Virus record (IMG/VR): IMGVR_UViG_3300029288_000152
Coordinates: 1 to 64,000 of that record
DNA from: a virus
Lineage: Duplodnaviria > Caudoviricetes
Strand: one strand, 5' to 3'
Length of the DNA: 64,000 nt
Shown here in pieces: positions 4,716 to 52,658 of this stretch. Position 1 is the stretch's first letter. Every line of letters begins with the position of its first letter. Below the pieces are notes generated by a model that saw nothing but the letters and a program-made list of their open reading frames with translations, did not search any database and was not told where the DNA came from. The translations under genes and the position numbers were made by a program.

Positions 4716-4845
4716 AGGGTTTGGCTCGATGGGGTCTGCCGAATACACCGAATAAGGCAGGAGCGATGCCGTGGAGCGTCGGTTTTAAGGCCGCCATCGA
4801 GCCAATTCGCCCCGCCCACGGTTGGGCAGAAACAGGAGTGAGGGG

Positions 4846-5976
4846 ATGAACGTAATTACCACAGAGCCTGTCCCGATCAAAGTGTGGGCTGAGAACGTCG
4901 AGGACGGGGCACTCGCGCAGGCGCGGAATCTGGCCCATCTGCCCTCCGTCTACAAGTGGGTCGCCCTGATGCCCGACTGCCACGTTGGCTACGGGATGCC
5001 CATTGGTGGCGTGCTGGCCACGACTGGACTCATCATTCCGAACGCGGTCGGCGTGGACATCGGCTGTGGGATGGTGGCGGTGTTGTTCGATACGCCTCCT
5101 CCAGATACCGACGAACTCAAGCGGATCATGGGGATTGTGCGGAAGGAGATCCCGGTCGGCTTCGGGCATCACGGAGAGCCGCAGGCGTGGGACGGATTCG
5201 AGTGGGCACCGGATCTGCCGGTGATTCAACAGGAACTCGCCTCTGCCCGTAAGCAGTTGGGGACGCTTGGCGGGGGCAACCACTTCATTGAGTTCCAAGT
5301 AGACGACACCGGGAAGTTTGGCATCATGTTGCACTCTGGGAGCCGCAACTTCGGCCTGAAGGTCGCGGGCACGTATCACAAGATCGCCTCTGCGCTCTGC
5401 GAGCGGTGGCACGTGGTGTTGCCTGACAGCGAACTGGCGTATCTGCCGGTCGAGACACGGGAAGCACAGGACTACCTCGCCGCGATGAACTACGCGCTCG
5501 ACTTTGCCAAGGCCAACCGCGCACACATGATGCAGGCCGTACTGGACATCGTTGGGTTGGCTCCGGTCGATTCTGTCAACATCCATCACAACTACGCGGC
5601 GATTGAACACCACTTCGGGCGGAACGTCTGGGTCCACCGGAAGGGCGCGACTAGCGCACGGGTGGGGGAACGCGGCATCATCCCCGGTTCAATGGGGACC
5701 GCGAGTTACATCGTGGAGGGGCTTGGAAACCCTGCGAGCTTTACGTCCTGTTCACACGGGGCTGGTCGTCGTATGGGGCGCAAGCAGGCTTCGCGGACGC
5801 TGGATTTGACCGCAGAGCAGGCCAAGATGGCCGGTATTGTCCACGGACTACGAAACGCCTCTGACCTTGACGAGGCACCGGGAGCGTACAAGGACATCGA
5901 TGTCGTCATGGCCGCACAGCAAGATTTGGTCAGCATCGTGTCGAAACGACTACCGTTGGGCAGCATCAAGGGTTGA
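4846..5976 (+). CDS. rtcB: RtcB family RNA ligase
   Basis: MPDCHVGYGMPIGGV, VGVDIGCGM, LGTLGGGNHFIE, HSGSR, HHNYA, HRKGAT, PGSMGT, SCSHGAGR, DEAPGAYKDI. Confidence 0.95.
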   Translation: MNVITTEPVPIKVWAENVEDGALAQARNLAHLPSVYKWVALMPDCHVGYGMPIGGVLATTGLIIPNAVGVDIGCGMVAVLFDTPPPDTDELKRIMGIVRKEIPVGFGHHGEPQAWDGFEWAPDLPVIQQELASARKQLGTLGGGNHFIEFQVDDTGKFGIMLHSGSRNFGLKVAGTYHKIASALCERWHVVLPDSELAYLPVETREAQDYLAAMNYALDFAKANRAHMMQAVLDIVGLAPVDSVNIHHNYAAIEHHFGRNVWVHRKGATSARVGERGIIPGSMGTASYIVEGLGNPASFTSCSHGAGRRMGRKQASRTLDLTAEQAKMAGIVHGLRNASDLDEAPGAYKDIDVVMAAQQDLVSIVSKRLPLGSIKG

Positions 5977-8328: not shown

Positions 8329-9687
8329 ATGTTGCTAAGATGCCTCCAATGCGATCACGTCGGGGAAGTCATGAGTGTCATTCCCGTCCGGAATGGACGG
8401 CTGATCCAGTTGGACTGTGGCCACACATCCACCTATGATGTGGGGATCAATGCCATGCCACGTGAGTATGAATGGGAAGATGAGGAGGAGCCAGACATGG
8501 GGAAGCATGTACCGTGGTTGACCGCGATCTGCCGCAGTTGCGGCTCGAAGTTCATGCCCGTCCCGGATGATGCCCGGCGGGAGTTCTGCCCGATTTGCCG
8601 AGAGGACTTGGGCATCCATACGGGGGAGGATGCGGTGGAGTTCCTGCGCCTGTATGACAAGGGAGCTATTACTGCTGTGACCCAAGCCGAGCGGCGAGCG
8701 TTGAAGGGGAAGGTCGTGCCCATCAAGGCCGCTGAACCTGTCAATCCAGAGGTAGTGGCTGAGGCGGTCAAGCAGCTCATCGATTACCAAGTCGCCCCCT
8801 TCACCGAGTTTGCGAAGCCCATCACGTACGTCATGTACAAGAATGGCCTGTTCGAGGTGCGGCACTCTGACCTCGCGACGGTCTATGTCGAGACCAAGGA
8901 CGTGCTGGGACTGGATACCATCTGTCGCCCCGGCATCCACCTCAACCTGCCCAAGGTGCCGTTGGAGATGCTGAAGCAAACCATCTCCTTCTTTAGAGGA
9001 GTGTGCCAGCGGCAGAATAGCTCATCCGAGGCGTTGGTGCAAATCTGGTGGGACCGGCAAGACAAGCGGCACTTCCTCTACATCCCTGAGCAGCAGGCCA
9101 GTGGAGGGAGTGTCAAGCCGACGAGTTGTTTTGACCAGGATGTGGATGGGCGATGGCTACGGGTGGGGGATATCCATTCCCACGGCACGGCGATGTCTGC
9201 ACACTTCTCTGGGATTGACAATGCTGATGAGGAAAGTATCACGACGGAGCGCATCTTTGGGGTGATTGGCAAGGTCGCGCAACCCATCCCGGAATGGGAC
9301 TGGCGGATGCGCACCCGAGGGGGGTTCATTCCCCTTAATGTGGTGGACATCTTTGACATCCCCACCCAAGACTTCACCTTCACTATCACATCTGAACGGC
9401 TGTTCAAGTCGATCAATGACAAGACGGCGTTCAAGGATGGACAGGTGGTGCTGTCCTGCCCGGTCGATCCCTTCACCGATGTGGAGATTCCTGAGGAATG
9501 GTATGCTCGTGTCAAGGGCTGGACGGCAGGACATGGACAGGGACACTTCTGGGACAAGGATCGCACCCCGGCGATGATGAAGGGGTATGTCTTTATTAAC
9601 GGGGAGGAATACATGGTAGAGGATTACAAGATGACTCCTACCGGCCATCGTCTGGTGAAGAAAGGTGAGGTTACTATCCATGGCTGA
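8329..9687 (+). CDS. JAB/MPN+ metallo-isopeptidase (PRTRC protein A-like) with N-terminal zinc ribbons
   Basis: SEALVQIWW...GDIHSHGTAMSAHFSGIDNADE (E...HxH...S..D); N-terminal CxxC pairs CLQC, CRSC, CPIC. Confidence 0.8.
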   Translation: MLLRCLQCDHVGEVMSVIPVRNGRLIQLDCGHTSTYDVGINAMPREYEWEDEEEPDMGKHVPWLTAICRSCGSKFMPVPDDARREFCPICREDLGIHTGEDAVEFLRLYDKGAITAVTQAERRALKGKVVPIKAAEPVNPEVVAEAVKQLIDYQVAPFTEFAKPITYVMYKNGLFEVRHSDLATVYVETKDVLGLDTICRPGIHLNLPKVPLEMLKQTISFFRGVCQRQNSSSEALVQIWWDRQDKRHFLYIPEQQASGGSVKPTSCFDQDVDGRWLRVGDIHSHGTAMSAHFSGIDNADEESITTERIFGVIGKVAQPIPEWDWRMRTRGGFIPLNVVDIFDIPTQDFTFTITSERLFKSINDKTAFKDGQVVLSCPVDPFTDVEIPEEWYARVKGWTAGHGQGHFWDKDRTPAMMKGYVFINGEEYMVEDYKMTPTGHRLVKKGEVTIHG

Positions 9688-15499: not shown

Positions 15500-15528
15500 T
15501 TGACAAAGTGCGGCCAAGCGCGTATGAT
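15500..15528 (+). promoter_or_regulatory. Sigma70-type promoter
   Basis: TTGACA (15500-15505), 17-nt spacer, TATGAT (15523-15528) in an intergenic gap. Confidence 0.75.
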
Positions 15529-15868: not shown

Positions 15869-16048
15869 GCGCACCAAAAGTTGTCAACACACCAGACGAT
15901 CAATTACTGGCTGACATGTGGAATCGTCTGCAGGATTGCCGAACGAGTTGTGATGCCTGCTATCCAGATGATCCACCTTGGAACTGTATTGAAAGATGCC
16001 TGGATGATCTAGAAGTCTTGCTGCGCAGATGTGGTGTGGGGAGGGACA

Positions 16049-18019
16049 GTGAGTAAACACATCTTGCATGATCGATCCCGCTGTGTGGCGGATTGGAAGT
16101 GTGGCCGGTTGCGCTACCTCGGGTACGAGTATGATGGCAAGGGCCTGACATCCGGCACGATGGCGCTGGAGTTGTATCTGGGACAAGCCATCCATGATGG
16201 GTTGGCGGCGATTGCCACTGGAACATACAATAGGCGGGATCGATTTGACATGGATCTCATCGCCACCACTGCTGCTCAACAAGTCCGTGAAGCACTGATG
16301 GCGCAGAGTGCGGGTGAGGATGAAGTCATCGCTGGGGCATTTGCCCAAGAACAGGCTGCTCTCGTTGAAGGATTGCTGAGAGGATTCTACATCCATGTCT
16401 GGCCGAGACTGATGGCACAGTATCCGGAGATCGTGCTCATTGAGCAGGAATGCACTTATGAACATGATAACATGATCTTCATGGCGAGGCCAGATGTGGT
16501 GCTGGCCAATACTGATGGTGAGTTGACCTACGTTGAATATAAGTCAACAAGTAGCAAGAAGGAAGAATGGATCAACAGTTGGAGTACAGCAGTACAACTC
16601 CATTCATCTATTCGAGCCATTGAAGCGACACTGGGCAGGAAGGTGGAGAGTGTGATTGTGCAGGGGCTGTACAAGGGGTACTGCCTCGCTCCAGATACCC
16701 CAGTGCTAACAGCCGATCTACGTTGGGTGCCTGTAGAGGCCTTAGAGGTAGGAGACAGACTGGCTGCATTTGAAGAGTACCCCGCAATGCGTAAGACTCG
16801 TCATAGTAAATCCGGGGAGTGCTCACGCCGAAGGCAGTGGAAATCTGCCGTGGTTACAAAAACAGGTGGAGCAATCCTACCATGTTACCGGCTATCTTTT
16901 GATGATGGCTCTACTATTGTTTGCTCTGAGCATCATAAGTGGTTGGCAGGATGGCGAACGGATGGCTCTGGTGCAGCTAAGTGGGTAGAAACTAAGGACT
17001 TGGTACCGTGGGAAAATGACTTTACCAAGGGGCACAGAATCCTAAAGATTATTGAGCCTAAGAAGACGGCTCTCGGGCTAGACTTTAGAGATAATTCTGA
17101 TTTGGGATACCTTTCAGCAGCATTTGATGGAGAAGGCCATCTATCCCAAACAAAAGGGAAATCAGGTTACTGGCAAACTTGGGTTGCCTTTTCCCAGAAC
17201 CCCAATGTCATGCTTACTAAAGTAACCGGGCTTCTGGATGGTTACAGCATACGTTACTCCGAACGACTAAAGCGGAGCGGGGCAGTCAACCGGCAGGTGC
17301 AAGTATCTGATAGGTTAGATGTCATGCGACTTTTATCATTAACTAGACCAGTTAGACTGCTGGAAAAGTTTAATGTGGACCATCTTGGGGGAGTGATGCC
17401 CTGCAGGCCACTGCCCAAACTTGTGGGTAAAGAGTACGTTGGACTTGGGGCAGTGATTACTTTGGAAACGTCTACTGGGACGCTCATTGCAAATGGGTTT
17501 GCTTCCCACAACTCAAGTTATGGCAAGCAGGGCAGTCCCATGTGCTATGGCTACTTCCGTGGGGGCAATCCACCGTTCACGCAGGACAGCATGCTCTATG
17601 AGTACAAGGCAGGCTACAAACGGTATCCCACTTGGGAGATGGAAGGGGGTGTCAAGAAGTGGGTAGAGTCCATGCCCGAGAACATCCTCGCGGACCAGTT
17701 CCCCTGCACGCCTCCCATCTTCATCAATGACGATCTGATCGATGCCTTCTTCACCCAGCGGGCTGACAGGGAGAAGCAGATTGACCTCGCCATGCAGATG
17801 TTGAGCATGGAAGAGGATGAGGATGTGAAGCGGCAGATCCTGGATTGTGCCTTCTCCCAGACATTTGACCAATGCTCCCCGGCGTGGGGTAGAGGATGTC
17901 CCTTCCGGCGCATCTGTCATGGACACATCCAGAATCCTTTGGAAGAGGGATGGGTGTACCGGACTCCGCATCATGCTGGAGAGTTGGAAGCGTGGGAAGC
18001 TGAATCGGCAAACAGTTAA
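16049..18019 (+). CDS. Cas4-like PD-(D/E)XK nuclease with putative Fe-S Cys cluster, intein-containing
   Basis: ARPDVV...VEYKS nuclease motif; N-terminal WKC and C-terminal QC...GCPFRRIC; intein in the middle. Confidence 0.8.
   Translation: MSKHILHDRSRCVADWKCGRLRYLGYEYDGKGLTSGTMALELYLGQAIHDGLAAIATGTYNRRDRFDMDLIATTAAQQVREALMAQSAGEDEVIAGAFAQEQAALVEGLLRGFYIHVWPRLMAQYPEIVLIEQECTYEHDNMIFMARPDVVLANTDGELTYVEYKSTSSKKEEWINSWSTAVQLHSSIRAIEATLGRKVESVIVQGLYKGYCLAPDTPVLTADLRWVPVEALEVGDRLAAFEEYPAMRKTRHSKSGECSRRRQWKSAVVTKTGGAILPCYRLSFDDGSTIVCSEHHKWLAGWRTDGSGAAKWVETKDLVPWENDFTKGHRILKIIEPKKTALGLDFRDNSDLGYLSAAFDGEGHLSQTKGKSGYWQTWVAFSQNPNVMLTKVTGLLDGYSIRYSERLKRSGAVNRQVQVSDRLDVMRLLSLTRPVRLLEKFNVDHLGGVMPCRPLPKLVGKEYVGLGAVITLETSTGTLIANGFASHNSSYGKQGSPMCYGYFRGGNPPFTQDSMLYEYKAGYKRYPTWEMEGGVKKWVESMPENILADQFPCTPPIFINDDLIDAFFTQRADREKQIDLAMQMLSMEEDEDVKRQILDCAFSQTFDQCSPAWGRGCPFRRICHGHIQNPLEEGWVYRTPHHAGELEAWEAESANS
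16682..17512 (+). mobile_element. Intein (277 aa) with a LAGLIDADG-type endonuclease motif
   Basis: Starts CLAPDTPVLTADLRWVPVEALEVGD; ends TLIANGFASHN followed by Ser; internal LGYLSAAFDGEG. Confidence 0.9.
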
Positions 18020-18228: not shown

Positions 18229-18477
18229 TTGAGGTGCGATGTGTATAAGATCATCATCGACAGACTGGCTGAGAATCCCAACTATGCTGAAGAGCGAACG
18301 CGCTGGCTTAACAGTCAAGCACAGCAGCCGTATGGGATCACTGGGTATAACCCTGAACCGTTACGTATGGTTCCTGTCAGAGCACTAGAAATGGATCTCA
18401 CAGAGGGCGAATTCAATGCGGTGAGACAAGCCGTACTGCAATTCATGGACACGGAACGGTTGGATGGAGGAATTTGA
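18229..18477 (+). CDS. Small protein ending LDGGI (possible DEGI-tail variant #17)
   Basis: Ends TERLDGGI*; TTG start is uncertain. Confidence 0.5.
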   Translation: MRCDVYKIIIDRLAENPNYAEERTRWLNSQAQQPYGITGYNPEPLRMVPVRALEMDLTEGEFNAVRQAVLQFMDTERLDGGI

Positions 18478-18489
18478 GCTTGCCGATTA

Positions 18490-19060
18490 TAGGGCTGACA
18501 AAACAGCAGGAGCTGCACAAGTACTGCTGACAAATCAGCCGCCCGTGCAGGGGAAACCGGGGAGTTACATGAACCCTCGGCGGCATCTTTTTGAGGTTGT
18601 GGTGGCTGTGACTCCGACAGGAGTTCCAAATGGTGGCGCTGCTGAGGGTTACTGTGGGGTTTGAGTCCCGCACACTGTCAGCAGGATAGCGGAGATGGAT
18701 GGGGCTGCGACCACGGCTGAAGGCCCCACCAGCCACCACATTGAGTTGTGGGAGATCGAGAGCATAAAGGTTCCAAGGGTACTTCCGGGATGGCTAATGT
18801 GACTTCCTGGACAAAACCCTGCAGGTTAACCTTGGTCGCCAGTCCCGATGAGGGCCGGTCTCCCATCAGAGTTGAGAGGTCCAGACATGGGTGCGGGTAG
18901 TAAGCTGATTAGAGTCCCTGAACCGTCATCAGGCTTCCAGCGTGCTGGAAGAACCTGCACGTGTCATTACTCGAAAGGCTGAACGCCAAGATCGCCAGCC
19001 CCATGACTAATCACACCCGGCTACGGCTGGGTGCGTGGGGTTAACGGCTCCCTGTTGGGC
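18490..19060 (+). ncRNA. Candidate large structured non-coding RNA (family unassigned; strand assumed from flanking genes)
   Basis: About 570 nt with no convincing ORF and many helices: 18598-18608/18730-18740 (11 bp), 18749-18757/18857-18865, 18784-18790/18805-18811, 18820-18827/18952-18959, 18906-18912/19007-19013, 18934-18940/18945-18951, and a c(UACG)g hairpin at 19014-19033. Confidence 0.6.
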
Positions 19061-19083
19061 CTCTCTTTGGATTGTGAAATGAC

Positions 19084-19320
19084 ATGAAGTGCGATAAGTG
19101 CGGCGAGGATATGTGGCTGCTCAGTGAGGGCCGGACCCTCGTTGGCTACTATTCTCCTCCCGGCCATGATCATGACGACAACTGTGTGACGCGCTACTAT
19201 GCTTGTCCCAACAATCACAGGCAGTCGACATCCAAGCGCAACACCTGTCCAGTGTGTGACTGGAGGGGGAAGGCTGAGTGCTTCTGTTGCGGACCAAAGG
19301 TGGATGCATGGCCGGATTGA
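19084..19320 (+). CDS. Cys-rich small protein
   Basis: CDKCG...CPNNH...CPVC...CFCC. Confidence 0.6.
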   Translation: MKCDKCGEDMWLLSEGRTLVGYYSPPGHDHDDNCVTRYYACPNNHRQSTSKRNTCPVCDWRGKAECFCCGPKVDAWPD

Positions 19321-20320: not shown

Positions 20321-20349
20321 TTGACAATCTCGTCACGAGGGTGTAAGAT
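20321..20349 (+). promoter_or_regulatory. Sigma70-type promoter upstream of the recombination genes
   Basis: TTGACA (20321-20326), 17-nt spacer containing the palindrome CTCGTCACGAG, TAAGAT (20344-20349). Confidence 0.6.
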
Positions 20350-20519: not shown

Positions 20520-21422
20520 ATGGCTGAATCAAAGCGAACGATCTTATTGTACGGCAGAAGTCGGGCGGGCAAGTCCACCATGATAGGTGAGTTAGCTGAG
20601 CACATCAAAGTCACGAAGGGCAAACTCACCCGCCTCTACACGGCTGACCGTGGTGGGGTTGATCCCATCAGGCCCTACATTGACTTGGGCATCATCCAAG
20701 CTGTGGAGATGGGCGATACAGATCCATGGATCTTCCTTCACAATGCGGTGCGTGGGAGGGTGCGGGATGGATCAGGCAAGTGGATACCCGGAAAGAATGA
20801 TGACATTGGCTTCTGGGCATTTGAGAGTTACACGTCATTTGCTGATGCCCTCATGCTATCTATGGCGATCAAGGCTGGACAGGGGATCAACATTGGTGGG
20901 GGCGCGAATGTGGCGTTCACCGCCACTGGAGATGGGGAGACGGTCAAGATCAGCGGCTCCAACATGGCCCATTATGGGGTCTGTCAGTCAAGGCTGACTG
21001 AGGAATCATGGGAGAGTCAGAAACTCCCCGGCTTGTTCATCTTGTGGACGGCAAGTGTCACGAAGGAGGATGACCCCACCGCTACGGGGAAGGTCTTGGG
21101 AGCAGCCGTGGCAGGCAAGGCACTAGCAACGGAACTGTTCAGATGGTTTGGACTGTCCTTCCGCATTGATGCCCTACCAGCCCAGCAGGGGAAGCCTGAA
21201 CGTCACATCCTCTACATGGGGAACAGTGTGGACATTGGTGCCGGGAATGCCGTAGGGCTGGGAAATACCAGGATTCCCATGGATGCGACACCGTTGCCGA
21301 GTAGCATTGAACCCGCATCACTCGTCAAAGCCCTGCAGATGATTGATGCCAGTGCGGTGACAGCCATGGATGTCATCAAGAAGAGACTCGCAGAAGCTAA
21401 ACCCGTCACCGTAACTCGTTAA
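20520..21422 (+). CDS. P-loop ATPase (AAA_24 / Sak4-like recombination protein)
   Basis: ILLYGRSRAGKST Walker A; followed by an SSB-like gene, as is typical. Confidence 0.7.
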   Translation: MAESKRTILLYGRSRAGKSTMIGELAEHIKVTKGKLTRLYTADRGGVDPIRPYIDLGIIQAVEMGDTDPWIFLHNAVRGRVRDGSGKWIPGKNDDIGFWAFESYTSFADALMLSMAIKAGQGINIGGGANVAFTATGDGETVKISGSNMAHYGVCQSRLTEESWESQKLPGLFILWTASVTKEDDPTATGKVLGAAVAGKALATELFRWFGLSFRIDALPAQQGKPERHILYMGNSVDIGAGNAVGLGNTRIPMDATPLPSSIEPASLVKALQMIDASAVTAMDVIKKRLAEAKPVTVTR

Positions 21423-51085: not shown

Positions 51086-51148
51086 TGTTTGGGGTACCTT
51101 TCAGAAAGGAGTGGGACAGCCCCAGCCGTCCCACCCATGTTAGAGTCT

Positions 51149-51514
51149 CTAGCCGACTTCGATGAATTTGTCAAGGGCCAAGAGGACGCTGGGTTCAATG
51201 GAGAACCCATCCCCCGGCAGCTTGATGATATCACTGTCTAGCTCAACTTCCTGTCCCATGAGTTCATTGAGGTCTGCGAGGAATGGTCCCATGTTCTTGG
51301 AGCCAGGTTGAATCTGGATGTTCTCACCCTTCTCGTCTGGTTCGCCATACTGTTTGACCAGTCCCTGTCGAACCTCCTCAATGATGGTCAGTTGGTCGTT
51401 GAGCTTCCGTGCCAATCGTGCCAACCAGTAGCTCACCTTGACGGGCAGGCGTTCCTTCATGAGCGTCTGGAGCGCCTCACGAGCGTTGAAGATGTCTCCG
51501 TTCGTCACTTTCAT
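51149..51514 (-). CDS. Conserved phage hypothetical protein
   Basis: LPVKVSYWLAR...LVKQYGE. Confidence 0.6.
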   Translation of the reverse strand: MKVTNGDIFNAREALQTLMKERLPVKVSYWLARLARKLNDQLTIIEEVRQGLVKQYGEPDEKGENIQIQPGSKNMGPFLADLNELMGQEVELDSDIIKLPGDGFSIEPSVLLALDKFIEVG

Positions 51515-51569
51515 GCGAGTCTCCGATACGAGAGGGAGGGGCGGAACCCCTCCCCACAGTTACGCTAAA

Positions 51570-52658
51570 TTAGGTTCGGAACACGTCACCCGAATCACCC
51601 GTGGCATCCGATGCCGGTTCGCCGTAGTTTCCAGCCATTCGTACCGTGGTCGGAACAATACACGCATCCCCAGCCGCACCAAAGGTCTTGGCATTCGTGC
51701 CCTGACTGATACACGCAAAGACGTTGTTGGAGATCACCCCAGCCGTCCCTGCACCCAGTGAGATATACCGGGCCGCAGTGGGGGAGGTCGCATAGGCAGG
51801 CACATCAACGGTCCCAAACACGTTTCCGTCGATCACCAGTCCAAGAACCCCATCAGCCGCCACATAGATATCCGCATCTACGGTCGTGTTGACCGCCGAG
51901 TAGAACCGATTGCCCAGGATCTTCAGATCGCGGGGAACACTGATACTCGTCGAGAGCATCCCAATCCCACAGCGGCAATCGAAGAAGTCATTGTTGGCAA
52001 TCGTGACATACCAACAAGATCCCGCAGACCAGTAGATCGCCCCACCGGTGTTGGCTGCCGCAGTACTCTTGCAGTTCTTGAAGTGACAACCGGAGATAAT
52101 GGCTCCCCCAGCATCCTTCGCGGACCCATCAGCCAGCAACTTGATCCCACCACCAGTCGCCCCAGCCCCGTTGATCGTAAAGTTATCAATCAACACGCCC
52201 GGCGCTTCAATGGTAATGAGTGGGTTGGTGGTTGTGGTGCCCTTACGAATGCAGGGCTGACCCATCTGCGACGTGCCATTCCCCACACCCACAAGCCGAA
52301 GACCGTCCAACCCGGCGGTAATCGTAATGTCGCCCAAGTAGCCGGGAGGATCATCCGCCGTGCCCGCCGCAACCCCAGCCGTATCAATGTCTCTGGCACG
52401 AACTAGGATGGTATCCCCATGAGCCGCTGCCGCTACCGCGAGCTGAATGGTTGAGTAGGGCAGACGGGTATCCGTCGCGCTGCCGTGGTCATAATCCACG
52501 AGCAGGGTATTCCCAAACGCAGGAGCATTCGAAATGGCGGACACATTTCCGCCAAGGTTCATATAGACCTTGCCCCCGTAAATGCCAATCCCACCAGCGG
52601 TCGGCAGATTCAACAGGTCTGCCAGTGCCGCTACTTTCTGGATATATCGTGTTGCCAT
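51570..52658 (-). CDS. Right-handed beta-helix (pectin lyase-like) virion protein
   Basis: PYSTIQLAVAAAAHGDTILV; repeated I..N.F rungs. Confidence 0.65.
   Translation of the reverse strand: MATRYIQKVAALADLLNLPTAGGIGIYGGKVYMNLGGNVSAISNAPAFGNTLLVDYDHGSATDTRLPYSTIQLAVAAAAHGDTILVRARDIDTAGVAAGTADDPPGYLGDITITAGLDGLRLVGVGNGTSQMGQPCIRKGTTTTNPLITIEAPGVLIDNFTINGAGATGGGIKLLADGSAKDAGGAIISGCHFKNCKSTAAANTGGAIYWSAGSCWYVTIANNDFFDCRCGIGMLSTSISVPRDLKILGNRFYSAVNTTVDADIYVAADGVLGLVIDGNVFGTVDVPAYATSPTAARYISLGAGTAGVISNNVFACISQGTNAKTFGAAGDACIVPTTVRMAGNYGEPASDATGDSGDVFRT

Follow-up and report, generated by a model that had tools for sequence, protein, structure and literature searches.

ROOL and GOLLD are rare, large, protein-free structured phage RNAs, for which unusual assemblies made of RNA alone have recently been demonstrated; GOLLD has a length of roughly 800 nt. 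The mean length of ROOL, which occurs in phages and close to tRNAs, is 581 nt, and GOLLD is one of the few RNAs of bacteria that exceed ROOL in length (PMC5737381). Here, a gap between two genes of a novel tailed phage, for which an earlier note had proposed a large and ornate structured RNA, was analysed with regard to known RNA families, fold stability, coding potential, relatives and transcriptional context.

The source record is a 74.5-kb IMG/VR virus that is rated complete, and its first 64 kb represent the window, meaning the whole stretch of DNA under study. The phage possesses portal, capsid and PolA genes, its large terminase shows ~27% identity to the nearest GenBank phages, and none of the GenBank phages has any DNA match to it. 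The genes of this phage mostly abut or overlap. The gap measures 606 nt and is located between two ORFs that are separate genes with their own stop and their own start, both ending in TGA. The features of the locus are the following:

15500 to 15528, + strand: sigma-70-like promoter TTGACA-17-TATGAT, 11/12.
18229 to 18477, + strand: upstream flanking gene of 82 aa, an ORFan that ends in LDGGI with the stop codon TGA.
18464 to 18664, + strand: candidate ORF P0001 of 66 aa, overlapping domain D1 and the start of domain D2 (see below); codon score 10.0, no homologue.
18478 to 19083, + strand: the whole non-coding gap, a candidate RNA-level element, based on the absence of a gene with homologues, the coding score, the fold z-score and the absence of an Rfam match.
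19084 to 19320, + strand: downstream flanking gene of 78 aa, Cys-rich and zinc-finger-like, the first gene with homologues after the gap.
20321 to 20349, + strand: next + strand promoter, TTGACAATCTC...GTAAGAT, taken as the end of the transcription unit.

The gap resembles ROOL in size (606 vs 581 nt), in its several predicted multistem junctions, in being phage-borne without an associated protein gene, and in its genome neighbourhood, where relatives of this phage carry tRNA genes. In contrast, ROOL is defined by six junctions and three pseudoknots, whereas there is no conserved family in which these could be recognised for the gap, the ROOL model has no match in it at E <= 10, and the only pseudoknot proposed for it is at chance level. 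With GOLLD it shares the character of a large non-coding phage stretch near the tRNA positions of relatives (GOLLD context according to PMC5737381), but it is shorter, lacks a covariance-model match and belongs to a phage without tRNA genes.

All 4227 families of Rfam 15 were searched with cmscan. At the gathering score, 0 matches were obtained over the window and none over the rest of the genome, and positions 18300-19250 had 0 matches at E <= 10; domains D2 and D4 alone gave only chance matches of 8-13 bits. This is in agreement with the view of the earlier note that no family was assignable and that the RNase P core was lacking. Several specific candidates were rejected on these and related grounds. 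The covariance models of ROOL, which comprises junctions and pseudoknots with ~10 invariant nucleotides, and of GOLLD were unmatched both in the window at the gathering score and in 18300-19250 at E <= 10. A group I intron (catalytic core P3-P9) or group II intron (domain V) was dismissed, as there was no Rfam match, the flanking ORFs are separate genes and the genome is without a reverse transcriptase, and RNase P RNA (core P4, GGAAAGUCC-type CR regions) had no Rfam match at E <= 10. With respect to tRNA and tmRNA (cloverleaf, canonical D and T arms), ARAGORN predicted 0 genes in the window and RF00005 was not matched even by D2 alone. YrlA with its partner Rsr was discarded because there was no YrlA match at E <= 10 and because the TROVE domain (PF05731) is absent from the 74.5-kb genome; as a control, the YrlA-like RNA of an unrelated phage contig (L009) was picked up at 36 bits with an E-value of 2.3e-05, under the 69-bit cut-off. 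Neither an integrase nor a reverse transcriptase was found in the genome, so that an attP site and a retron were rejected as well, and a replication origin was dismissed because the gap lacks an AT-rich tract, a turn in GC skew and any iterons other than two 14-mers.

The minimum free energy (MFE) fold of the + strand of the gap is composed of four independently closed domains of 105-211 nt, among which the best-defined closing helices comprise 11 bp (D2), 10 bp (D3) and 10 bp (D4). The domains and the smaller elements within and between them are:

18481 to 18585, + strand: D1, a three-way junction in which one hairpin bears both copies of GCTGACAAAWCAGC; -44.3 kcal/mol, z -4.46 (200 shuffles).
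18586 to 18597, + strand: U-rich linker UCUUUUUGAGGU located 3′ of the GCCGCC/GGCGGC pairing, weakly terminator-like; read from the sequence and without a call in the terminator scan.
18598 to 18740, + strand: D2, a four-way junction with a perfect 11-bp closing helix and three arms, cloverleaf-like in outline; -71.2 kcal/mol, z -4.03, RNALfold z -4.72.
18747 to 18865, + strand: D3, multibranched with a 10-bp closing helix, the weakest domain; -45.9 kcal/mol, z -1.96.
18866 to 19076, + strand: D4, a long irregular arm with a CUUCCAG-CGUG-CUGGAAG hairpin and a cUACGg hairpin; -89.2 kcal/mol, z -3.50.
19014 to 19033, + strand: 8-bp hairpin with a UACG (UNCG-type) tetraloop, read by eye and contained in the MFE fold.
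19046 to 19070, + strand: terminator-like hairpin GGCUC-CCUGUU-GGGCC followed by UCUCUUUGG, 14 nt ahead of the next start codon, found by consensus scan.

The MFE structure of D1 accounts for 24% of the ensemble and is the same as the centroid, and UCUUUUU follows 3′ of this domain. The two copies of the 14-mer GCTGACAAAWCAGC (18494-18507 and 18526-18539, 32 nt apart), both of them 5-bp inverted repeats in their own right, together make up the D1 hairpin, in which the CAAA internal loops are symmetric. This pair could equally be a DNA operator pair, and no further exact copy of the 14-mer was present within the window. For D3, the MFE structure and the centroid disagree inside the domain, and 8 of 200 shuffles were as good as the native sequence, while none of 200 was as good for D1, D2 and D4. 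Within D4, an RNALfold z of -4.86 was obtained for positions 18994-19049.

Most of the helices listed in the earlier note were re-read in the sequence, and the pairings 18538-43/18579-84, 18598-608/18730-40 (perfect 11 bp), 18749-58/18856-65 and 18820-27/18952-59 (8 bp) as well as the cUACGg hairpin at 19014-33 were all present. Its nested pairs 18776-80/18816-20 and 18784-90/18805-11 appear in the D3 MFE fold; the MFE fold of D4 departs in part from the proposed pairs 18886-91/19000-05 and 18906-12/19007-13 and contains a hairpin that is shifted by about one base from 18934-40/18945-51. The pairing 18820-27/18952-59, which had been put forward as a pseudoknot or an alternative fold, is at chance level: by our own estimate about three pairings of this kind are expected in 600 nt. 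Perfect 11-bp inverted repeats, one of which is the D2 helix, occur 9 times in the genome vs about 4 expected (own estimate).

The whole gap folds with -255.3 kcal/mol and a z of -3.87 on the + strand (20 dinucleotide shuffles), compared with a z of -1.92 on the - strand. For the individual domains, the z-scores on the + and the - strand were -4.46 and -1.64 (D1), -4.03 and -2.41 (D2), -1.96 and -0.84 (D3), and -3.50 and -2.79 (D4), a comparison which favours the + strand because the domain limits were set from the + strand fold. When the MFE was regressed on composition, the residual of the gap (-2.96 sd) was the most extreme relative to 213 windows, the next of which reached -2.75. In the RNALfold z ranking of 600-nt windows the gap took place 18 of 739 on the + strand (top 2.4%) and place 162 on the - strand, and it holds 2 of the 22 loci with z <= -4.5 on the + strand and 0 of 23 on the - strand (Poisson P 0.014). 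The 24 evenly spaced control windows had a mean z of -0.98 (sd 1.8); the gap was surpassed by two of these windows (-4.67 and -7.11). The former, 51101-51706 on the + strand, is antisense to late genes, and its value was calculated with only 14 shuffles and is possibly noise.

An intergenic region of ~370 nt at 66.70-67.07 kb of the genome, beyond the window, folds more strongly than the gap (z -5.61). This region (66700-67070; L100:2700-3070) contains a perfect 17-bp hairpin, the promoter-like word TTGACAAT and U-tract hairpins, has no Rfam match and looks like a promoter and terminator region. As a regulatory intergenic region thus out-scores the gap, fold energy alone cannot tell an ornate RNA from ordinary intergenic hairpins here; a z near -4 is reached by ordinary regions of this genome and is by itself no evidence for an ornate RNA. 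The fold signal of the gap is real, strand-specific and moderate. The comparison with dinucleotide shuffles that had been suggested in the earlier note places the gap below the shuffles on the + strand, the one that also carries the flanking genes, and in terms of a conserved structured non-coding RNA its stability exceeds both shuffles and genome background, though 2 of the 24 control windows were lower. Hence, the proposal of a large ornate structured RNA stands as far as the better-than-shuffle fold of the + strand is concerned, but nothing favours one unit over four hairpin domains, terminator-like hairpins or spacer. A single large and ornate RNA on a par with ROOL or GOLLD is possible, but the results do not support it, and we regard it as quite improbable.

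In order to assess the coding potential, a codon-usage log-odds score was trained on 50 long ORFs of this phage. For the neighbouring genes the score was positive in their actual reading frame, and from ~18600 to 19050 it was negative in all six frames, in line with the earlier claim of a gap without a credible ORF. The 5′ third of the gap has a weak frame-2 coding signal. Frame 2 contains only five stops (4 TGA and 1 TAA), a number at chance level (P = 0.57, 2000 dinucleotide shuffles), and TGA recoding of this frame was rejected on account of this stop count and of the TGA codons that end both flanking genes. The read-through translation of frame 2, P0127, was compared by phmmer with 1.84 billion protein representatives and matched only the record's own two ORF calls; this absence of protein similarity beyond the own record argues against a pseudogene. 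A tblastx search of the gap against the rest of the genome revealed no paralogue. The 3′ end of the gap shows a TTGGAT...ATGA resemblance to a family of many C-terminally tagged small proteins of this phage, but a pseudogene of this family was rejected, as the HMM and the PWM of the tag do not match and tblastx gave nothing. P0001 with its 66 aa was the sole exception to the absence of a protein-coding gene or pseudogene. The same crude scorer missed the real gene 19084-19320, and it is therefore unreliable for short ORFs.

Homologues of the gap were found neither at the DNA nor at the protein level in the phage, plasmid, IMG/VR, JGI metagenome and GTDB collections. DNA similarity searches left it unmatched in phages (near and distant mode) and plasmids (distant mode), and exact-pattern scans of IMG/VR with the 11-bp helix pair and with a 25-mer of the D4 hairpin yielded no match. 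Translations of gap ORFs, namely the 98-aa and 62-aa minus-strand ORFs and the frame-2 read-through P0127, were used as degenerate probes with six patterns per scan against IMG/VR, JGI metagenome contigs and GTDB (one genome per species); only pattern matches were obtained, none of which was confirmed. A single-sequence covariance model of D2 (R1) finds only itself; its sole non-self match (L056, 20.9 bits) lies inside a 544-aa ORF and was taken as chance.

The genes next to the gap differ in their distribution. The upstream 82-aa gene has no homologue but itself among 5.8 billion proteins searched. For the downstream 78-aa gene the searches yielded, apart from its own sequence, four clusters of homologous proteins (49-62% identity) and three IMG/VR loci (48-60%); the loci of its homologues (L002-L004, L007-L012) share only that gene, and the gap sequence is upstream of it in none of them. 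In one of these, the unrelated contig L009 (1740-4000), the homologue is located just downstream of a TROVE/Rsr (Ro60-like) gene with two tRNAs in between. There is a YrlA-like match upstream of the TROVE gene and the locus contains five tRNAs; it looks like a phage-borne Ro/Y-RNA module.

Further upstream of the gap, a 662-aa PD-(D/E)XK nuclease (16031-18019, + strand) has many homologues. The closest were found on the contigs L013 (62% identity), L014, L015/L016, L017 and L018, and in the IMG/VR loci L019-L025. In these relatives a conserved order was observed, in which the nuclease is followed by a variable slot and then by a ~300-aa protein (window 20520-21422), and the slot contains unrelated small ORFs, an Hjc-like gene, an HNH gene or a phosphoesterase. 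The gap sequence was found in none of L013-L025, while the core genes are kept. Since the core genes are kept and the slot contents are unrelated among relatives, the element would be accessory, lineage-specific cargo inside an early operon. The corresponding gap of L017 (530 nt) is not unusually structured (z -1.46). On L015, a 72-kb contig whose nuclease is 51% identical, three tRNA genes are present in a 700-nt gap just after the 300-aa homologue (8581-8821). The alignment of the nuclease itself shows an invariant Cys at position 212, followed by YDAGYLAAAFDGEG and then by ASHN, and the alignments of many homologues of ~375 aa cover only ~31% of the query, at ~60% identity. The 662-aa protein appears to contain an intein that includes a LAGLIDADG homing-endonuclease domain, and the ~375-aa homologues may be read as intein-less.

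Promoter-like sites were found neither within nor just before the gap, and the promoter at 15500-15528 probably drives the operon that contains it. Given the absence of a promoter in or before the gap and the promoters at 15500 and 20321, the gap, if transcribed, would be an internal part of an early operon. Six exact copies of TTGACAATCTC are present at positions 1308, 14706, 20321 and 33642 of the window and at positions 64621 and 65183 of the genome, each with a GTATAAT-like hexamer ~12 nt later (TTGACAATCTC-N12-GTATAAT), and by its sequence this set is a putative phage-specific extended sigma-70-type promoter family. The early region encodes an RtcB RNA ligase (4822-5976, + strand; Pfam E 2.7e-108) and a Fic-domain protein (119-646, + strand); the phage possesses RNA-repair capacity yet no tRNA genes. 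An MT-A70 family methyltransferase (25374-25907, + strand) and a UDG-PolA fusion protein (27904-30663, + strand; Pfam UDG and DNA_pol_A) were also identified.

Taken together, we tentatively favour, with a confidence that falls short of calling it probable, the reading of the gap as a non-coding orphan that works at the RNA level on the + strand and is co-transcribed with the early genes. The points for this reading are the lack of a coding signal in 18600-19050, the strand-specific excess of fold stability (z -3.87 on the + vs -1.92 on the - strand), the promoters that bracket the gap as part of an operon, its absence from the relatives and the variable slot seen in L013, L015, L017 and L018; its transcription, its processing and any function in trans are inferences. 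Against it stand the lack of any homologue in the collections searched, and hence of covariation and of signs of selection, the 2 of 24 control windows with lower values, the several regions that rank higher by RNALfold, the 11-bp helix as one of nine such repeats in the genome, D3 with a stability barely above the shuffles, the region at 66.70-67.07 kb (z -5.6) and the gene-like codon score of P0001. The element lies in the hypervariable cargo slot between the core genes for the PD-(D/E)XK nuclease and the 300-aa protein and, having no promoter of its own, would be transcribed inside the early operon from the 15500 promoter to the 20321 promoter. Its transcript is predicted to fold into the four self-contained domains, each with its own closing helix. 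The folded segment may be freed from the polycistronic transcript, or shielded inside it, to give one or more stable RNAs, and resistance to nucleases would come from their closing helices and UNCG-capped hairpins. As accessory non-coding RNA, these products would then resemble the tRNA cargo that is co-transcribed and processed in other phages. With phage tRNA/YrlA cargo the gap shares its non-coding nature, its predicted structure, the lack of a promoter and the location in a variable slot of an early operon; L015 with three tRNAs and L009 with a sub-threshold YrlA-like RNA and five tRNAs carry such cargo at comparable positions, and D2 consists of a long closing helix and three arms. The gap differs from this cargo in that it has no tRNA or YrlA model match, its phage has no Rsr/TROVE, and its domains of 105-211 nt are larger than tRNAs.

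The properties of the slot are also compatible with a non-functional or decaying spacer, which might be a remnant of lost accessory genes or DNA acquired in a recombination-prone cargo slot, its structure being a chance tail for 57% G+C. The slot is hypervariable and wholly different among relatives, the gap and its upstream neighbour are both ORFans, the fold signal puts the gap only within the top 2-3% of the genome, the pseudoknot and the 11-bp helix are both close to what chance predicts, and other stretches of 450-640 nt without confident genes are present in this phage. We nevertheless consider a spacer somewhat unlikely, as there is no trace of a former gene, the gap being unlike paralogues, the slot genes of relatives and any protein; the C-terminal tag profile of the small genes does not match its 3′ end, the small number of stops in frame 2 is no more than chance would give, and the asymmetry of + over - strand folding is unexpected of junk, although part of it may reflect the skew of G over C and the domain limits chosen on the + strand. 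Regulation of the operon in cis appears unlikely. It would involve partial terminators or attenuators (the GGCGGC-AUCUUUUU end of D1; the 19046-19061 hairpin with its UCUCUUU tail), mRNA-stabilising hairpins or translation control of the downstream zinc-finger-like gene, and the terminator-like site at 19046-19070, the U-tract 3′ of D1 and the location of the gap inside a transcription unit point in this direction. The region at 66.70-67.07 kb, with its promoter word and U-tract hairpins (z -5.6), demonstrates that such strong-folding regions exist in this phage, and the gap resembles intergenic regulatory regions of this type in its strong local hairpins, its U-rich tails and its position between genes, but differs from them in having no promoter-like site, in being twice as long and in being mainly multibranched instead of forming simple hairpins. 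For a regulatory role 600 nt is long in a phage with mostly abutting or overlapping genes, neither the end of D1 nor 19046-19070 is a canonical terminator, the number of terminator-like matches in the region is not above shuffle expectation, and termination leaves the multibranch D2 unexplained.

The presence of one or more unannotated small protein genes, i.e. P0001 and perhaps an ORF of ~32 codons from 18887 behind the Shine-Dalgarno sequence GAGAGG, with the rest being ordinary untranslated sequence, is in our opinion distinctly unlikely. This phage is rich in genes for 54-103 aa, the codon score of P0001 (10.0) lies within the range of its small genes (8-15), the first 150 nt score +0.14 per codon in frame, the ATG overlaps the end of the upstream gene, an arrangement which is common in this phage, and P0001 was also called by the gene caller of the database. 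On the other hand, its sole database matches are the record's own ORF calls, so that it is without homologue or paralogue, its Shine-Dalgarno sequence is weak, the score was obtained with the scorer that missed 19084-19320, and even with P0001 being real ~420 nt (18665-19083) remain without a coding signal. That the gap belongs, as a divergent representative, to one of the known families of large RNAs (ROOL, GOLLD, an ORF-less group I/II intron, RNase P RNA, tmRNA or a YrlA/tRNA-like RNA) is so improbable as to be largely refuted already. With 606 nt the gap is close to the mean ROOL length of 581 nt, both ROOL and GOLLD are known from phages and from the vicinity of tRNAs (PMC5737381), D2 is cloverleaf-like in outline, and the unrelated L009 has Rsr/TROVE, a YrlA-like RNA and tRNAs beside the homologue of the downstream gene; these likenesses are opposed by the empty cmscan result for 4227 Rfam 15 families, also at E <= 10 over 18300-19250, by the chance-level 8-13 bits of D2 and D4 alone, by the absence of a tRNA or tmRNA according to ARAGORN, and by a genome without TROVE, reverse transcriptase and integrase.

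Beyond the favoured reading of an orphan RNA-level element, it is very doubtful, yet conceivable, that the gap belongs to a new class of large multi-domain phage RNAs, as the first of them to be sequenced, and is ROOL/GOLLD-like in size and genomic habit and processed from an early operon. Such an RNA might have a role in defence evasion or in the metabolism of RNA; an RtcB RNA ligase is encoded by this phage as well. The barely sampled phage lineage could be the only reason why comparative methods miss it. As one sequence that lacks replication and whose thermodynamic signal is moderate, the gap is of value mainly as a flagged candidate; if the reading were true, a further and unrelated large phage RNA would widen the class of the ROOL/GOLLD type.
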